A stretch of DNA of 45,417 nucleotides, taken from the IMG/VR virus record IMGVR_UViG_2706794697_000014, one strand, 5' to 3'. The notes below the pieces were generated by a model. It did no database searches. It was not told the origin of the DNA and saw only the letters and a list, made by a program, of their open reading frames with translations. Source of the DNA: a virus (lineage: Duplodnaviria; Heunggongvirae; Uroviricota; Caudoviricetes). Shown one piece after another: positions 542 through 45,417 of the stretch (positions are counted from its first letter, which is position 1; each line of letters opens with the position of its first letter). The translations under genes were made by a program, and so were the position numbers.

Positions 542-1579
542 TTAACGCTTATCCGCCACCAGTTTGAGCGCGTGTTCCAGCACATTAATGTCTGCACCCG
601 CTTTATGGGCATTTTCACTTAAATAACGCCGCCACTGCCGCGCGCCAGGAATACCCTGGAACAAGCCCAACATATGCCGGGTAATATGGCCGAGATACGT
701 CCCCTGGCTGAGTTCACGCTCAATGTACGGATACATGGCGCGCACTACCGCCACCGGATCGGCATCGGTATCCGAGGAACCAAAGATCTCCCGGTCTACC
801 GCCGCCAGAATACCCGGATTCTGATACGCCTCGCGCCCGACCATCACGCCATCCATATGTTGCAGGTGTGCTTTGGCCTCTTCCAGCGACTTGATACCAC
901 CGTTAATCGACATTGTCAGATGCGGAAAGTCACGCTTCAGTTGATACACACGCGGATAATCGAGTGGCGGGATTTCACGGTTTTCTTTCGGGCTTAACCC
1001 CGAAAGCCAGGCTTTACGTGCGTGGATGATAAACATCTCACACTCGCCTTTGCCGGAAACGGTGTTGATGAAATCGCAGAGAAATTCATAGCTGTCCTGG
1101 TCATCGATGCCAATACGCGTTTTCACCGTCACTGGAATCGACACCACATCGCGCATCGCTTTCACGCAGTCGGCAACCAGCTGCGCATTACCCATCAGAC
1201 ACGCACCAAACATGCCGTTCTGCACCCGGTCAGACGGGCAGCCGACATTCAGGTTGATCTCATCATATCCACGCGCTTCTGCCAGCTTCGCACACTGTGC
1301 CAGCGCCGCCGGATCGCTACCGCCGAGTTGCAACGCTACCGGATGTTCTTCTTCACTGTACGCCAGGTAATCACCTTTACCGTGAATAATCGCCCCTGTG
1401 GTCACCATTTCGGTATACAGCAACGTATTGCGGGAAAGCAGACGCAAGAAATAGCGGCAATGTCTGTCCGTCCAGTCGAGCATAGGAGCAATGCTAAACC
1501 GAGAACTCCAGTAAGCGCCAGTTTTTTCAGGCATCACGCTGGTTTGATTAGTTTTCTGTGTTTCAGGATTATCGTGCAT
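542..1579 (-). CDS. dusA: tRNA-dihydrouridine synthase A (host; 5' end adjoins prophage)
   Basis: 345-aa ORF with Dus/TIM-barrel sequence ([28 protein letters not shown]) recognised as E. coli DusA. Confidence 0.9.
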
Positions 1580-1667: not shown

Positions 1668-2765
1668 ATGGCGTACTATAACATAGAGAAACGACTAAAA
1701 TCCGATGGCACACCACGCTATCGCTGTAATGTGATTATCAAAGAAAAAGGTGTTATCACTTACAGGGAAAGCAAAACATTCCCTAAACATGCTCATGCCA
1801 AAACATGGGGCGCACAGAAAGTGATGGAATTAGATCTATATGGCATTCCATCATCAAATGCTGTTGACGGACTTACAGTCCGTGACTTACTACACAAATA
1901 TTTAAATGACCCAAATGCCGGAGGTAAAGCAGGCCGTACTAAAAGATATGTGCTGGAACTGCTTATGGATAGTGACATCTCCGCGATCAAACTATCTGAA
2001 CTGACAGAAAATGACGTAATTGAACATTGCAGGCTAAGAAACAACGCTGGTGCAGGCCCAGCAACAGTCAGCCACGATGTTAGTTATCTTGGCAGTGTTC
2101 TGGATGCGGCAAAACCTGTATACGGAATCAATTACACATCAAACCCGGCGAAAAGCGCTCGTCCATATCTACTTAAACTCGGTTTGATTGGTAAATCAAA
2201 CCGTCGTAATCGTAGACCAGCATCTGATGAACTGAACATGCTCATTGAAGGCCTTCAACAACGATCTACTCATAAATGCTCAAAAATTCCGTTCGTTGAT
2301 ATCCTCAAATTTTCTGTGTGGTCCTGTATGCGAATCGGAGAAGTATGCCGGTTACGATGGGAAGATCTCGACCAGGAACAAAAATCTATACTAGTAAGAG
2401 ACAGGAAAGATCCACGTAAAAAGGAAGGCAACCATATGAAAGTTGCCTTGCTTGGGGAAGCCTGGGATATCGTCCAGCGACAACCCAAAAAATCAGAATT
2501 CATTTTTCCATATAACAGCACTTCTGTTACCGCAGGATTTCAGAGGGTAAGAAGCAAATTAGGTATTAAAGATCTGAGATACCATGATTTGCGTAGAGAA
2601 GGGGCAAGTCGCTTATTTGAGGCTGGTTTTAGTATTGAGGAAGTCGCTCAGGTTACAGGGCATCGTTCATTAAACGTGCTATGGCAGGTATATACCGAAC
2701 TGTATCCGAAATCTTTACATAATCGTTTTGAAGAACTCCAAAGGAGCAGAAATAAGACCTCTTGA
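1668..2765 (+). CDS. int: tyrosine-type phage integrase (dusA-associated)
   Basis: 365-aa ORF, GAGG RBS 8-11 nt upstream; C-terminal catalytic region (HDLRREGASRLFEAGFSIEEVAQVTGHRS) typical of tyrosine recombinases; divergent from dusA 5' end. Confidence 0.9.
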   Translation: MAYYNIEKRLKSDGTPRYRCNVIIKEKGVITYRESKTFPKHAHAKTWGAQKVMELDLYGIPSSNAVDGLTVRDLLHKYLNDPNAGGKAGRTKRYVLELLMDSDISAIKLSELTENDVIEHCRLRNNAGAGPATVSHDVSYLGSVLDAAKPVYGINYTSNPAKSARPYLLKLGLIGKSNRRNRRPASDELNMLIEGLQQRSTHKCSKIPFVDILKFSVWSCMRIGEVCRLRWEDLDQEQKSILVRDRKDPRKKEGNHMKVALLGEAWDIVQRQPKKSEFIFPYNSTSVTAGFQRVRSKLGIKDLRYHDLRREGASRLFEAGFSIEEVAQVTGHRSLNVLWQVYTELYPKSLHNRFEELQRSRNKTS

Positions 2766-3848: not shown

Positions 3849-5196
3849 AAAGTCATTCTCGAAAAAAAATCTTCTAAAAGTATACTCTGAAAAAATCAAA
3901 GAATCAGGAGCGATTGGCATAGATCGGATTCGCCCATCAAAACTTGATTTGACAATAAAAAATGAGATCACTTTCATTTTTGAAAAGGTTAATTCTGGCA
4001 ATTACAAATTTACAGCATATAAAGAAAAATTAATATCTAAAGGCGCTAACTCTACACCCAGACAGATTTCCATACCAACTGCTAGGGACAGAATTACTCT
4101 TAGAGCTCTCTGTGAATGCCTTACGGAAATATATCCTAAGTCCAGATTAAAACTACCACATACAGTAATTGACTCATTGAAAGAAGCATTAAACAACAGT
4201 CTATATGCTGAATATGCAAAAATAGATCTTAAAAGTTTCTATCCTTCAATTGAACATAAATTGATAATTAATGCAATAAAAAATAAAATTAGAAAAAAAG
4301 AAATTAGACAGTTAATAACATCATCATTAATCGTGCCTACTGTAAGTGGAACCACAGGAAGCAAAGGTATCCCTAATAATACCAGAGGAGTACCTCAGGG
4401 ATTAGCGATATCAAACATTTTAGCTGAAATATCACTATCTAATTTCGATGATGAAATCAATAAAATGCATGACATATGGTACATGCGATACGTTGATGAC
4501 ATTCTTATTTTAACACCAAAATATCAAGCAACAAAAATAGCTTCTCATATCATTGATAAGCTTCAATCATTAAATTTAAACCCACATCCATTAAATGAAG
4601 AGAACTCAAAATCCAAAGTAGGCAGCTTGGATGAAAGTTTCAACTTTTTGGGCTACCACATAAAAAATCGAGAATTATTGATAAAACATGAGAGCATTCT
4701 TAGATTTGAGTCATCCTTAGCAAAAATTTTTACTGCATATAGACACGCTCTACTACAAGCTAAAAATAAGCGCGATAAAGAACGAGCTGTTGCATATTGT
4801 CAGTGGAAACTAAATCTTAGAATTACGGGATGTGTGTTTGAAGGTAAACGATTGGGATGGGTATCGTACTTCTCACAAATAACGTCAACAGCTCAACTTC
4901 GAGCTGTTAATCATACGATCAATAATCTTATCCGCCGATTCGGCCTTTCATCAGAAATAAAACCAAAGTCTTTGATTAAAACTTTCTATGAACTCCGCAG
5001 GGGTAGAGCGGAGACTTTTAAATACATACCTAACTTTGACAATCTACATATATCTCAGAAACGAGAAATTGTTTCTATGTGGATAGGGAAAGAGAATGAA
5101 AAAAAACTTAGCAATAGTGAAATAGAGAGAAAATTTAAATTTAAAATTGCGAAATCAGTAAAAGAGCTTGAAGAGGACATTTCAGGGATATCATAG
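3826..5196 (+). CDS. reverse transcriptase (defence-associated/retron-like; family unassigned)
   Basis: RT motifs in translation: ISIPTARDRITLRAL (motif 1-2), KIDLKSFYPSIEH (3), GVPQGLAISNILAEI (4), YMRYVDDILIL with YVDD catalytic box (5), FNFLGYHI (7), thumb-like GKRLGWVSYF; ATG at 3826 within track ORF 3820..5196. Confidence 0.85.
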   Translation: MTASRIFKKSFSKKNLLKVYSEKIKESGAIGIDRIRPSKLDLTIKNEITFIFEKVNSGNYKFTAYKEKLISKGANSTPRQISIPTARDRITLRALCECLTEIYPKSRLKLPHTVIDSLKEALNNSLYAEYAKIDLKSFYPSIEHKLIINAIKNKIRKKEIRQLITSSLIVPTVSGTTGSKGIPNNTRGVPQGLAISNILAEISLSNFDDEINKMHDIWYMRYVDDILILTPKYQATKIASHIIDKLQSLNLNPHPLNEENSKSKVGSLDESFNFLGYHIKNRELLIKHESILRFESSLAKIFTAYRHALLQAKNKRDKERAVAYCQWKLNLRITGCVFEGKRLGWVSYFSQITSTAQLRAVNHTINNLIRRFGLSSEIKPKSLIKTFYELRRGRAETFKYIPNFDNLHISQKREIVSMWIGKENEKKLSNSEIERKFKFKIAKSVKELEEDISGIS

Positions 5197-43016: not shown

Positions 43017-43850
43017 TTGCGTATATATACACACATGTGTTGTATTACAGCGATAATGGTAAAGCAAATGATTAACTCTGAAGCAATTGAGCAACTAATG
43101 TGGCTATGGTCCTTATTTGACATTAAATTCTTATCTATTCTTGCCGCTGCCTTCACTATATATTTTGGCGTGCAAAAAATATCAAAAAAGGTGACAGTGT
43201 CGTATTCAGCAAATGCAAGTAGAATATATGACATGCATATATCAACCATAATCCTGAATAATAAAAGAGATAATGCAATTGCTATATCTTCAATCAATAT
43301 GGAGGTTGAAGGTAAAGGGATACTACAAGTTATTAAATTTGACTCCCCTCTTCTTTTAAAGAACTATGATTCTTTAAAAGTTGAACCACCAAAATTTAGC
43401 AGCCTTTACAATAATGATGGCGTAGTTAAGTTAGATATTTCTGATAAGTTTCATTTTTATATAATCACGACATCTGGAGATGAAATTAAATGTATTTCTG
43501 AAAATAAATATGTAGCACCAAACATGGAAAACAAAATAGCTACAGACATAAGAAAATTTAATGGCATTGTCTTAACAAACAGAATGTCTTATATTTTTTT
43601 CTATGCAAATGACAACGGAGAGAAATACTGCATAATAGATGTTTCATTGTTCATAAATGGTGACAACCCATTTCATTTTAATTTTTTAAAAGAAGATGAA
43701 TTAAGAGATTTTTCTAGCATCCTTATTAGTTACGGATATCACCAACAGTTTAAAAGTTATGCATTGTTTAAAATAGACAACCATCTTGCTCCTTCTTTGG
43801 TTTTAAATAAATCAATGATAGAAAATAATATTATTGAAATGAATAAGTAA
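43017..43850 (+). CDS. AT-rich hypothetical protein with N-terminal membrane anchor
   Basis: ORF with hydrophobic segment LMWLWSLFDIKFLSILAAAFTIYF then about 220-aa Asn/Lys/Ile-rich domain; start uncertain (track start is TTG; ATG candidates at MVKQ/MINSE). Confidence 0.55.
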   Translation: MRIYTHMCCITAIMVKQMINSEAIEQLMWLWSLFDIKFLSILAAAFTIYFGVQKISKKVTVSYSANASRIYDMHISTIILNNKRDNAIAISSINMEVEGKGILQVIKFDSPLLLKNYDSLKVEPPKFSSLYNNDGVVKLDISDKFHFYIITTSGDEIKCISENKYVAPNMENKIATDIRKFNGIVLTNRMSYIFFYANDNGEKYCIIDVSLFINGDNPFHFNFLKEDELRDFSSILISYGYHQQFKSYALFKIDNHLAPSLVLNKSMIENNIIEMNK

Positions 43851-43886: not shown

Positions 43887-44168
43887 ATGAATACCTTGTT
43901 TTTACTGATGGCTGAATTCAATACCCCAAACATTGAACTCTCAGCAGTTAGTCAAAAATACTTTGGTATGAGTCCAGCCACAGCAGAAGCAAAAGCAAAC
44001 GCTTGTAAGTTGCCTGTACCTACATATCGCATCGGTACATCACAAAAAGCAAAACGTTGCATCAATATTCAGGATCTTGCGGAATACATAGACAAAAGAC
44101 GAGAAGAAGGACGTATCGAGTGGGAACAGGTCAGAACAGGCAAACAGAAGGGCAAAGAACATCACTAA
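43887..44168 (+). CDS. PrtN-like pyocin activator family protein
   Basis: 93-aa product MNTLFLLMAEFNTPNIELSAVSQKYFGMS... recalled as PrtN family; GGAGA RBS. Confidence 0.6.
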   Translation: MNTLFLLMAEFNTPNIELSAVSQKYFGMSPATAEAKANACKLPVPTYRIGTSQKAKRCINIQDLAEYIDKRREEGRIEWEQVRTGKQKGKEHH

Positions 44169-44169
44169 A

Positions 44170-44200
44170 GAAAAAACCCGCCTAAAGGCGGGTTTTCAAA
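44170..44200. terminator. bidirectional intrinsic terminator
   Basis: A6-AACCCGCC-TAAA-GGCGGGTT-TTT between convergent genes. Confidence 0.6.
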
Positions 44201-44216
44201 AAGCACCAGCTATGAT

Positions 44217-44390
44217 CATGCTGCTTTGCGACGACGAAGCTTACCCTGCTGCTCTTTACCAGAGACAGTAGCGTGAGTGAACGCATTAGGAGCAGCCTTC
44301 ATCAGAACTTCAACAGCAGCACCCATACCTGCGAATGCTTTCATTGTGTCGAACTTAACCTGTGGCTTGGTTGCTTTTTGATCTTCCATA
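44217..44390 (-). CDS. hypothetical small protein (58 aa)
   Basis: ORF below track cutoff: MEDQKATKPQVKFDTMKAFAGMGAAVEVLMKAAPNAFTHATVSGKEQQGKLRRRKAA; GGAG RBS; followed by terminator. Confidence 0.3.
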
Positions 44391-44428
44391 GAAAACTCCA
44401 GAAGCTATACCGAAACAATTCCTGTTGT

Positions 44429-44848
44429 TTACTCATCATCAATAGATGATACGCAATATTTATTTTTAAATTTAAGGTTCTTTGGCGTAACTTCATCAGA
44501 TATATCAAAACCGTCCAGAATTCTATTGAATGTAGCTTCTGGCATATCATCATGAACGGAAATCTCACCCGATCGCTGCTTTCTAACCATGTTATCCACT
44601 CGCCAAATTATAGCTTCAGCGTAAACAACATAACTTGGATGCTTGATAAAGCGATGATCACCAGAATTCAAGACGCAAGACGGATCGTGGGGGACACCAT
44701 CCTTGATACTAGAAATATTAACAACTAAAACACAATAACAATCGTTAACGGGGTAATAAACAGGATCATTACAAATCACATGAAGATGATTGCATGGCCC
44801 AGTTGGGGCAAGCACAGTTCCTTTCCTGTATGGCTGATAATCCGTCAT
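44429..44848 (-). CDS. hypothetical protein, candidate toxin partner of Panacea-like gene
   Basis: 139-aa ORF overlapping upstream gene by 4 nt (ATGA coupling). Confidence 0.5.
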   Translation of the reverse strand: MTDYQPYRKGTVLAPTGPCNHLHVICNDPVYYPVNDCYCVLVVNISSIKDGVPHDPSCVLNSGDHRFIKHPSYVVYAEAIIWRVDNMVRKQRSGEISVHDDMPEATFNRILDGFDISDEVTPKNLKFKNKYCVSSIDDE

Positions 44849-45417
44849 GATAATTGCAAAGAAAATTCCTTAAGTTTCTGAGATTCTTCCATTTTGCCAA
44901 TTATACGATTAGCCTCATCCTCGCTTTTACCCTCACTGATCAGCATTTCTTTCAGGTCTATAGGCTTACGAGAATTGCCAGGATTGTGCCACTCTGGACA
45001 AACGCTTTCTAAATGCGTCATGTTTGCGAGATCAAATCGGTTCATATGCCCATACAGAGAATAGATTTCATCTAAAATCCGGATATCTGCACGGCTCAAC
45101 TCATCAAAGACCTCGTCTGCATCCATTTCCCTCGGATCTGAACGCAACAACACATCATGCCCGTTCGTCTCTATCAGGTTGTACCAGTAGTCACCAATAC
45201 CTTCAGCCTTACCACGAATCAAGTTCAGCGTATTCGACATGACTGGACCAAATTTCATAGAGTAAAGGCTATCTTCGCCGATCATCCTGCCATGCTTCAA
45301 AATCGACTTGCGGTTAGACAGATAGAGCAGCTTCATCAATTTCAGATATGCCATGCGCCCACCTCGCTTAAGAAGTAGGTATGCAGCCATTTGAGCTACT
45401 TTTTCTTCGCAAAACAT
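44845..45417 (-). CDS. Panacea/DUF4065 (SocA/GepA)-like protein; start coincides with window edge
   Basis: N-terminus MFCEEKVAQMAAYLLLKRGGRMAYLKLMKLLYLSNR resembles DUF4065 phage-associated proteins as recalled; ORF begins at the last codon of the window, so may be 5' truncated. Confidence 0.45.
   Translation of the reverse strand: MFCEEKVAQMAAYLLLKRGGRMAYLKLMKLLYLSNRKSILKHGRMIGEDSLYSMKFGPVMSNTLNLIRGKAEGIGDYWYNLIETNGHDVLLRSDPREMDADEVFDELSRADIRILDEIYSLYGHMNRFDLANMTHLESVCPEWHNPGNSRKPIDLKEMLISEGKSEDEANRIIGKMEESQKLKEFSLQLS

Follow-up and report, generated by a model that had tools for sequence, protein, structure and literature searches.

The right-hand end of the 45,417-nucleotide viral DNA stretch IMGVR_UViG_2706794697_000014, referred to in its entirety as the window, carries two overlapping genes, panA and panT, that most likely constitute a type II PanA-PanT (PanAT) toxin-antitoxin (TA) module. 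An Escherichia coli prophage that integrates at dusA bears the pair as cargo (a "moron") at its att-proximal end. A first-pass annotation, made from the sequence alone, had proposed at this place an open reading frame (ORF) of 190 amino acids (aa), coupled through an ATGA overlap to a 139-aa ORF and followed by a strong terminator, and all of these were present where it had put them (Table 1). It had also suggested that the 139-aa protein might be a novel toxin. This part fell away, as the protein belongs to cluster T6 of the PanAT loci defined by Kurata et al. (2022, PNAS, PMC8832971), in which the partners were sorted into 88 clusters, and T6 is a catalogued family with one validated member. 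Sequence comparison indicates that the module is a real, complete PanAT locus of a known, catalogued kind, and probably a functional one.

PanA is a Panacea protein partnered with a T6 family member

In the Pfam search, PanA matched the SocA_Panacea profile (PF13274) with 67.9 bits against a cut-off of 25.7 (E=1.8e-18), over profile positions 1-109 of 113, with the Panacea domain at residues 27-137. The resemblance to DUF4065/Panacea proteins noticed in the first-pass annotation was thus upheld above the gathering threshold, and the protein is named "Panacea domain-containing protein" in RefSeq (WP_000458583.1). Alignment of 52 PanAs partnered with this toxin family revealed a conserved C.EW.DP.GSS.PI motif after the domain, followed by a variable C-terminal tail of ~40 aa, with the length of the protein steady at about 180-197 aa.

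The T6 rows of Dataset S1 include Pantoea septica LMG 5345 (order A|T, gap -4), "Yersiniaceae bacterium 2016Iso4" (gap -1) and Corticibacter populi DSM 105136 (PMC8832971). Homologues of the window PanT were recovered by tblastn from the same strains, with identities of 55-56% in Pantoea septica LMG 5345 and Chimaeribacter/Yersiniaceae 2016-Iso4 and 33% in Corticibacter populi DSM 105136, and the junctions recovered in the first two, -4 and -1, equal the gaps given in those rows. The same cluster holds the Pseudomonas moraviensis pair (PanT WP_083201923.1, PanA WP_083354365.1). That PanT was toxic in E. coli, was neutralised by its PanA, formed a stable complex in pull-downs, and specifically inhibited protein synthesis (35S-Met) and not DNA synthesis, while HHpred pointed to the EndoA/PemK/MazF RNases (PMC8832971). 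The cloning primers for this pair encode the termini MPGNIL...IRQNNF for PanT and MIFSEQ for PanA (PMC8832971). They are resembled by the pair of Pseudomonas phage Sirocco, which starts MPGIIF (PanT) and VIFSEQKVAQ (PanA) and whose proteins are 48% and 46% identical to those of the window.

The window pair and T6 therefore have in common the antitoxin-first order with a -1 or -4 overlap, a standalone Panacea antitoxin about 185-190 aa long that begins M(I/F)xxEQ/EKVAQ, and a partner predicted to have a MazF/PemK fold and about 135 aa in length. They differ in that the window pair lies on an E. coli dusA prophage, whereas the P. moraviensis locus was scored "NotPhage", and in that the window pair is only about 46-48% identical to the Pseudomonas branch. 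The RefSeq accessions of the window pair were not found in the papers searched or in the Kurata supplements, of which Dataset S1 was covered in part, so that their absence from it is unproven.

PanT has a predicted MazF-like barrel with its own set of conserved residues

The N-terminus MTxYxPYRKGTVLAP of PanT was conserved in 24 homologues. Because this conservation takes in the first 11 residues, the ATG at 44848 appears to be the true start and the ATGA overlap to be real. In RefSeq, the Prokaryotic Genome Annotation Pipeline (PGAP) begins the protein at GTG 44815 and yields a 128-aa "hypothetical protein" (WP_014640052.1). The alignment indicates that the PGAP start is 11 codons too late, and PanT expressed from it would be N-terminally truncated. 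Homologues of 130-150 aa occurred across Enterobacterales, Vibrio and Shewanella, and an exhaustive search returned 871 clusters (50% identity) at E<=1e-3.

No significant match to PanT was obtained in Pfam, NCBIfam or PADLOC, Pfam yielding only a chance match to ICMT below threshold. An AlphaFold2 model computed from a 24-sequence input had a mean predicted local distance difference test score (pLDDT) of 88.4 and comprised a beta-barrel at residues 10-83 followed by three C-terminal helices. The nine best structural matches of the model were all MazF/Kid-type toxins, ahead of CcdB. As modelled, PanT has the SH3-like barrel fold of MazF, Kid and CcdB.

Across 118 diverse relatives, residues H21, L22, V43, D55, C58, G63, H65, F67, S72, Y76, G113 and S117 were at least 86% conserved (H21 at 97%) and positions 46-47 were mostly S/T; the window PanT carries every family-wide conserved residue. 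The catalytic residues of MazF are an Arg at the start of beta-2 and a Thr/Ser in the beta-3/beta-4 loop (R29/T52 in E. coli; R25/T48 in Bacillus subtilis). An hhalign comparison with four MazF-type sequences was collinear and non-significant, with H21 beside MazF H28-R29 and S46/S47 on T52/T53; the alignment is a weak guide to residue mapping only. In PanT, H21, S/T46-47 and S72 may stand where MazF has its active-site Arg, Thr and Ser.

The two genes travel together and are under purifying selection

To score pairing, one genome was taken per species, giving 50 loci with a PanT relative, 3 of which were too short or too close to a contig edge to judge. PanA was found directly upstream on the same strand in 45 of the 47 evaluable loci. 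The remaining two lacked PanA and carried only N-terminally truncated PanT remnants in which H21 was missing. All orphan PanTs being truncated, intact PanT was never seen without PanA, as expected of a toxin.

The two remnants lie at 3944-4294 of locus L040 and 4031-4354 of locus L046, the N-terminal strands bearing H21 having been lost from both. The L040 ORF starts with the PanA-like N-terminus MVFNERKVSQ, which suggests that a deletion has joined panA codons 1-10 to the 3'-terminal two-thirds of panT.

Adjacent copies of both genes in the same order were also detected by tblastn in 9 phages, of Escherichia, Yersinia, Vibrio, Pseudomonas, Klebsiella and Helicobacter, and the flanks among the phage loci inspected were unrelated (integrase, portal, terminase or tail genes). 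Kurata et al. looked for genes spaced by <=100 nt in operons of no more than three genes. In the window, panA and panT lie on the same strand with a 4-nt ATGA overlap, and the neighbourhood gives no sign of an operon of more than three genes, the flanking genes differing between phages. The adjacency in genomes and phages bears out the earlier description of a conserved, translationally coupled TA-like gene pair.

Against the Kosakonia and Pluralibacter copies, the proportion of nonsynonymous differences (pN) in panA and panT was about 0.08-0.10 and that of synonymous differences (pS) about 0.73-0.82, a saturated value, for a pN/pS of ~0.1. The comparison points to strong purifying selection on panA and panT alike. 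All three ORFs of the region had PHROG family matches: phrog_1281 for panA, phrog_19071 (function unknown) for panT and phrog_2741 for the small downstream gene, orf57. Together with the Pfam match and the purifying selection, these matches show the features to be more than chance.

A tandem arrangement of three consecutive PanA-PanT pairs and a fourth PanA, all on one strand, was observed in a metagenome-assembled genome of Candidatus Poriferihabitaceae (OZ245364.1; locus L053 550-4348).

Evidence against a toxin-antitoxin module and alternative readings

A number of observations weigh against assignment as a functional TA module with a MazF-like toxin. Toxicity, rescue, complex formation and the translation block are known from the P. 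moraviensis homologue only, and the window pair was compared with that validated pair through primer-derived termini only. Several predicted PanTs were non-toxic in E. coli (Kurata et al., Table S1, PMC8832971). PADLOC-DB 2.0 gave no match for PanA, PanT, orf57 or a nearby 277-aa ORF, and the module is not a catalogued defence system. Pfam gave no match to PemK_toxin (PF02452) for the window PanT or any of the 118 members, and sequence searches of the PDB with the 24- and 118-sequence profiles returned chance matches only (E above 0.2). As the hhalign comparison was likewise not significant, the sequence-level link to PemK/MazF was not reproduced. Finally, the conserved His, Asp, Cys, His, Ser and Tyr differ from the canonical Arg/Thr of MazF, with no Arg conserved there, and the chemistry could therefore differ from that of MazF.

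The alternative that survives best is that the pair is conserved but not a TA module, PanT being harmless to the cell and the pair having some other phage-related function, for example as a sensor/effector active on infecting phage or as a regulatory pair. The departure of the conserved PanT residues from the catalytic ones of MazF would fit such a function, as would the proposal that Panacea is mainly a sensor domain (Ernits et al. 2023) and the finding by Kurata et al. that the partners in eight assayed pairs were "not toxic" in E. coli, an E. coli and a Salmonella phage pair among them (PMC8832971). However, the non-toxic E. coli MOD1 and Salmonella phage Emek pairs belong to cluster T1, described as "mRNase" (PMC8832971), which has no detectable relation to the window family. 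The T1 pairs share with that of the window an antitoxin-first order with a Panacea antitoxin and a location on enterobacterial prophages, but the PanAs are only 25% identical and the Emek partner, which looks RelE/ParE-like when read by eye, aligned with the window family at an hhalign probability of only 0.1%. Identification of the window pair with the entry "E. coli MOD1 mRNase, not toxic" was rejected on these grounds. The only T6 member assayed was toxic and neutralised (PMC8832971), and truncation of the orphan PanTs would follow if intact PanT does harm when PanA is missing. A non-toxic pair is thus decidedly unlikely.

A PanT that kills through DNA damage and not through a translation block, whether as a gyrase poison like CcdB or as some other non-RNase toxin on the same barrel, is very improbable. 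The canonical catalytic Arg of MazF is indeed not conserved in PanT, but CcdB ranked behind the nine MazF/Kid-type structural matches, and inhibition by the T6 homologue of P. moraviensis was specific to protein synthesis and spared that of DNA (PMC8832971).

The downstream gene orf57 belongs to the phage backbone

The first-pass annotation had listed a possible third ORF of 58 aa. The ORF exists at 44389-44216 (-), but its length is 57 aa, the earlier count having taken in the stop codon. It starts 39 nt downstream of panT with its own GGAG Shine-Dalgarno sequence, shares the terminator, and is probably co-transcribed with panAT. In phage mEp460, orf57 adjoins xis without PanAT, an unrelated 177-aa gene (gp23, L058 1784-2317, no Pfam match) being present instead. 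Among four phage loci with PanAT (Yersinia, Klebsiella, Pseudomonas and Helicobacter) whose flanks were read, no orf57-type small gene lay beside the pair. The 57-aa ORF was therefore removed from the module. From the mEp460 arrangement, orf57 is a backbone gene, and dusA-integrating phages have a variable slot for cargo between attP and orf57. A three-gene PanA-PanT-orf57 unit, with the 57-aa protein as accessory factor or chaperone, has in its favour the short spacing, the separate Shine-Dalgarno sequence and the common terminator, but it was rejected on the mEp460 comparison and is hardly credible given the four loci without such a gene and the merely sporadic third genes in the data of Kurata et al. 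(PMC8832971).

The module lies complete at the end of a dusA-integrating prophage

Table 1. Features of the panAT region and of the left end of the window
Feature	Position	Strand	Description and basis
panA, 190 aa	44845-45417	-	Panacea-domain antitoxin candidate; Pfam, PHROG, RefSeq
panT, 139 aa	44429-44848	-	Putative toxin, Kurata T6 member
ATGA stop/start overlap of panA/panT	44845-44848	-	Sequence; -4 or -1 overlaps also in homologous loci
orf57, 57 aa	44216-44389	-	Small backbone gene; phrog_2741, E=8e-36
Intrinsic terminator hairpin, GAAAACCCGCC-TTTA-GGCGGGTTTTT	44172-44197	.	Terminator scan and sequence
xis, PrtN-type excisionase	43887-44168	+	Pfam PF11112, E=3e-23; phrog_1300 "excisionase"
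Dus gene (dusA), intact	542-1579	-	Left end of window
Tyrosine integrase	1668-2765	+	Directly abuts dusA

A 1.6-kb region containing the module was 100% identical to chromosomal segments in many E. coli strains; it was matched in part in 742 of 5,426 complete E. coli genomes and over at least 80% of its length in 194 of them. In E. coli A14, the sequence past the end of the window consists of 254 bp of non-coding DNA, after which the attachment site is marked by a truncated piece of the 5' end of dusA (tRNA-dihydrouridine synthase). In SKA5, a free phage, the order runs int, dusA fragment (attP), panA, panT, orf57 and xis. With dusA and the integrase at the left end of the window, the dusA fragment past the right end and the order in SKA5, the window was recognised as a dusA-integrating prophage. 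An intact dusA abutting the integrase, with the native dusA 5' fragment at the opposite end, is the layout classically seen with mobile elements specific for dusA, which restore the gene's 5' end. These comparisons place the panAT pair at the att-proximal end of the prophage.

As panA starts at the very edge of the window, the first-pass annotation had cautioned that the module might be incomplete. This concern was not borne out, since beyond position 45417 there are only a non-coding promoter region and the dusA att site. The N-terminus MFCEEKVAQ agrees with the N-termini of homologues, and RefSeq holds the same 190-aa protein. By sequence, the coding part of the module is complete and only its 5' region lies outside the window.

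A sigma-70-like candidate promoter, TTGACC-17-TAAACT, was identified about 127 bp upstream of panA, outside the window. The sequence upstream of panA was also searched for operator-like inverted repeats, and none was detected. At the other end, the terminator, whose coordinates were converted from a scan of the identical E. coli A14 locus (L001), has an 11-bp stem and T-runs on both strands; it lies 4 nt past the xis stop codon, between xis and the convergent panAT-orf57 operon. GC content was 38-44% in the module region, compared with roughly 50% in neighbouring phage genes. A prophage-end position, an own promoter and terminator, and low GC content are typical of genes expressed in the lysogen.

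A 14-nt block, GCCTATTGGGAACC, was noted ~200 bp upstream of panA, outside the window (L001 8795-8808; also in L008 and L009). It was invariant across the E. coli, Kosakonia and Pluralibacter loci, in which the surrounding sequence has diverged, and could be a regulatory element or an arm-type site for the integrase. The 277-aa ORF mentioned above, at 43017-43850 (+) between xis and a yfdQ-like gene, is very AT-rich (GC fraction 0.26-0.33) and is 260 aa long in RefSeq. It matched phrog_14996 (E=3e-178, function unknown), had no significant match in Pfam and none in NCBIfam or PADLOC, and appeared by eye to have a hydrophobic N-terminus. This ORF has the look of a second cargo gene gained by horizontal transfer, perhaps one that acts in superinfection exclusion.

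Proposed mechanism and relation to known systems

In the proposed mechanism, panA and panT would be transcribed inward as a single transcript from the promoter just outside the window, and the ATGA overlap would couple translation of panT to that of panA. By analogy with P. moraviensis, whose homologue the E. coli copy would be expected to resemble in action, PanA would most likely neutralise PanT through direct binding. Free PanT would most likely block translation, probably via RNA cleavage on the predicted MazF-like scaffold. A role of the module in abortive infection, superinfection exclusion/defence or prophage stabilisation is plausible.

A more far-reaching version of this scheme, possible but on the unlikely side, is that the T6 PanT is non-canonical. 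Its own set of H21, D55, C58, H65, S72 and Y76 on the MazF scaffold would then form a distinct nuclease or a metal- or Cys-dependent enzyme, the Panacea domain of PanA would be a sensor that releases PanT upon superinfection, and the pair would be an uncatalogued abortive-infection defence in the attP-xis cargo slot.

The module is most readily compared with MazEF, Kis-Kid and PemIK (PemK_toxin, PF02452), with which it shares an antitoxin-first coupled operon and likely translation inhibition. It differs from them in that PanT has no similarity to PF02452 at the level of hidden Markov models, carries a conserved polar set of His, Asp, Cys, His, Ser and Tyr instead of Arg and Thr, and adds a C-terminal extension of three helices, and in that the antitoxin is a globular Panacea protein and not of the AbrB/SpoVT or MazE type. 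SocAB of Caulobacter crescentus is a type VI TA system in which SocA, a DUF4065 protein, acts as an adaptor for ClpXP. SocA and PanA carry the same Pfam domain, but PanA scored 13.5 bits against a cut-off of 190 on the NCBIfam SocA equivalog (NF047745), and its partner has the predicted MazF fold and is not SocB. Neutralisation by PanA was found to be independent of ClpXP and Lon (Kurata et al., PMC8832971).

No new kind of system is revealed by this locus, and modest interest remains in the T6 family, which has no Pfam model or solved structure and has non-canonical conserved residues. The analysis improves the annotation of a module carried by about 194 of the 5,426 complete E. coli genomes, where the toxin now stands as a "hypothetical protein" with a start 11 codons late, and it adds a native E. 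coli member to a PanT family in which only a Pseudomonas pair was assayed. The E. coli pair would be a convenient system for finding out what Panacea senses and whether prophage PanAT defends lysogens.
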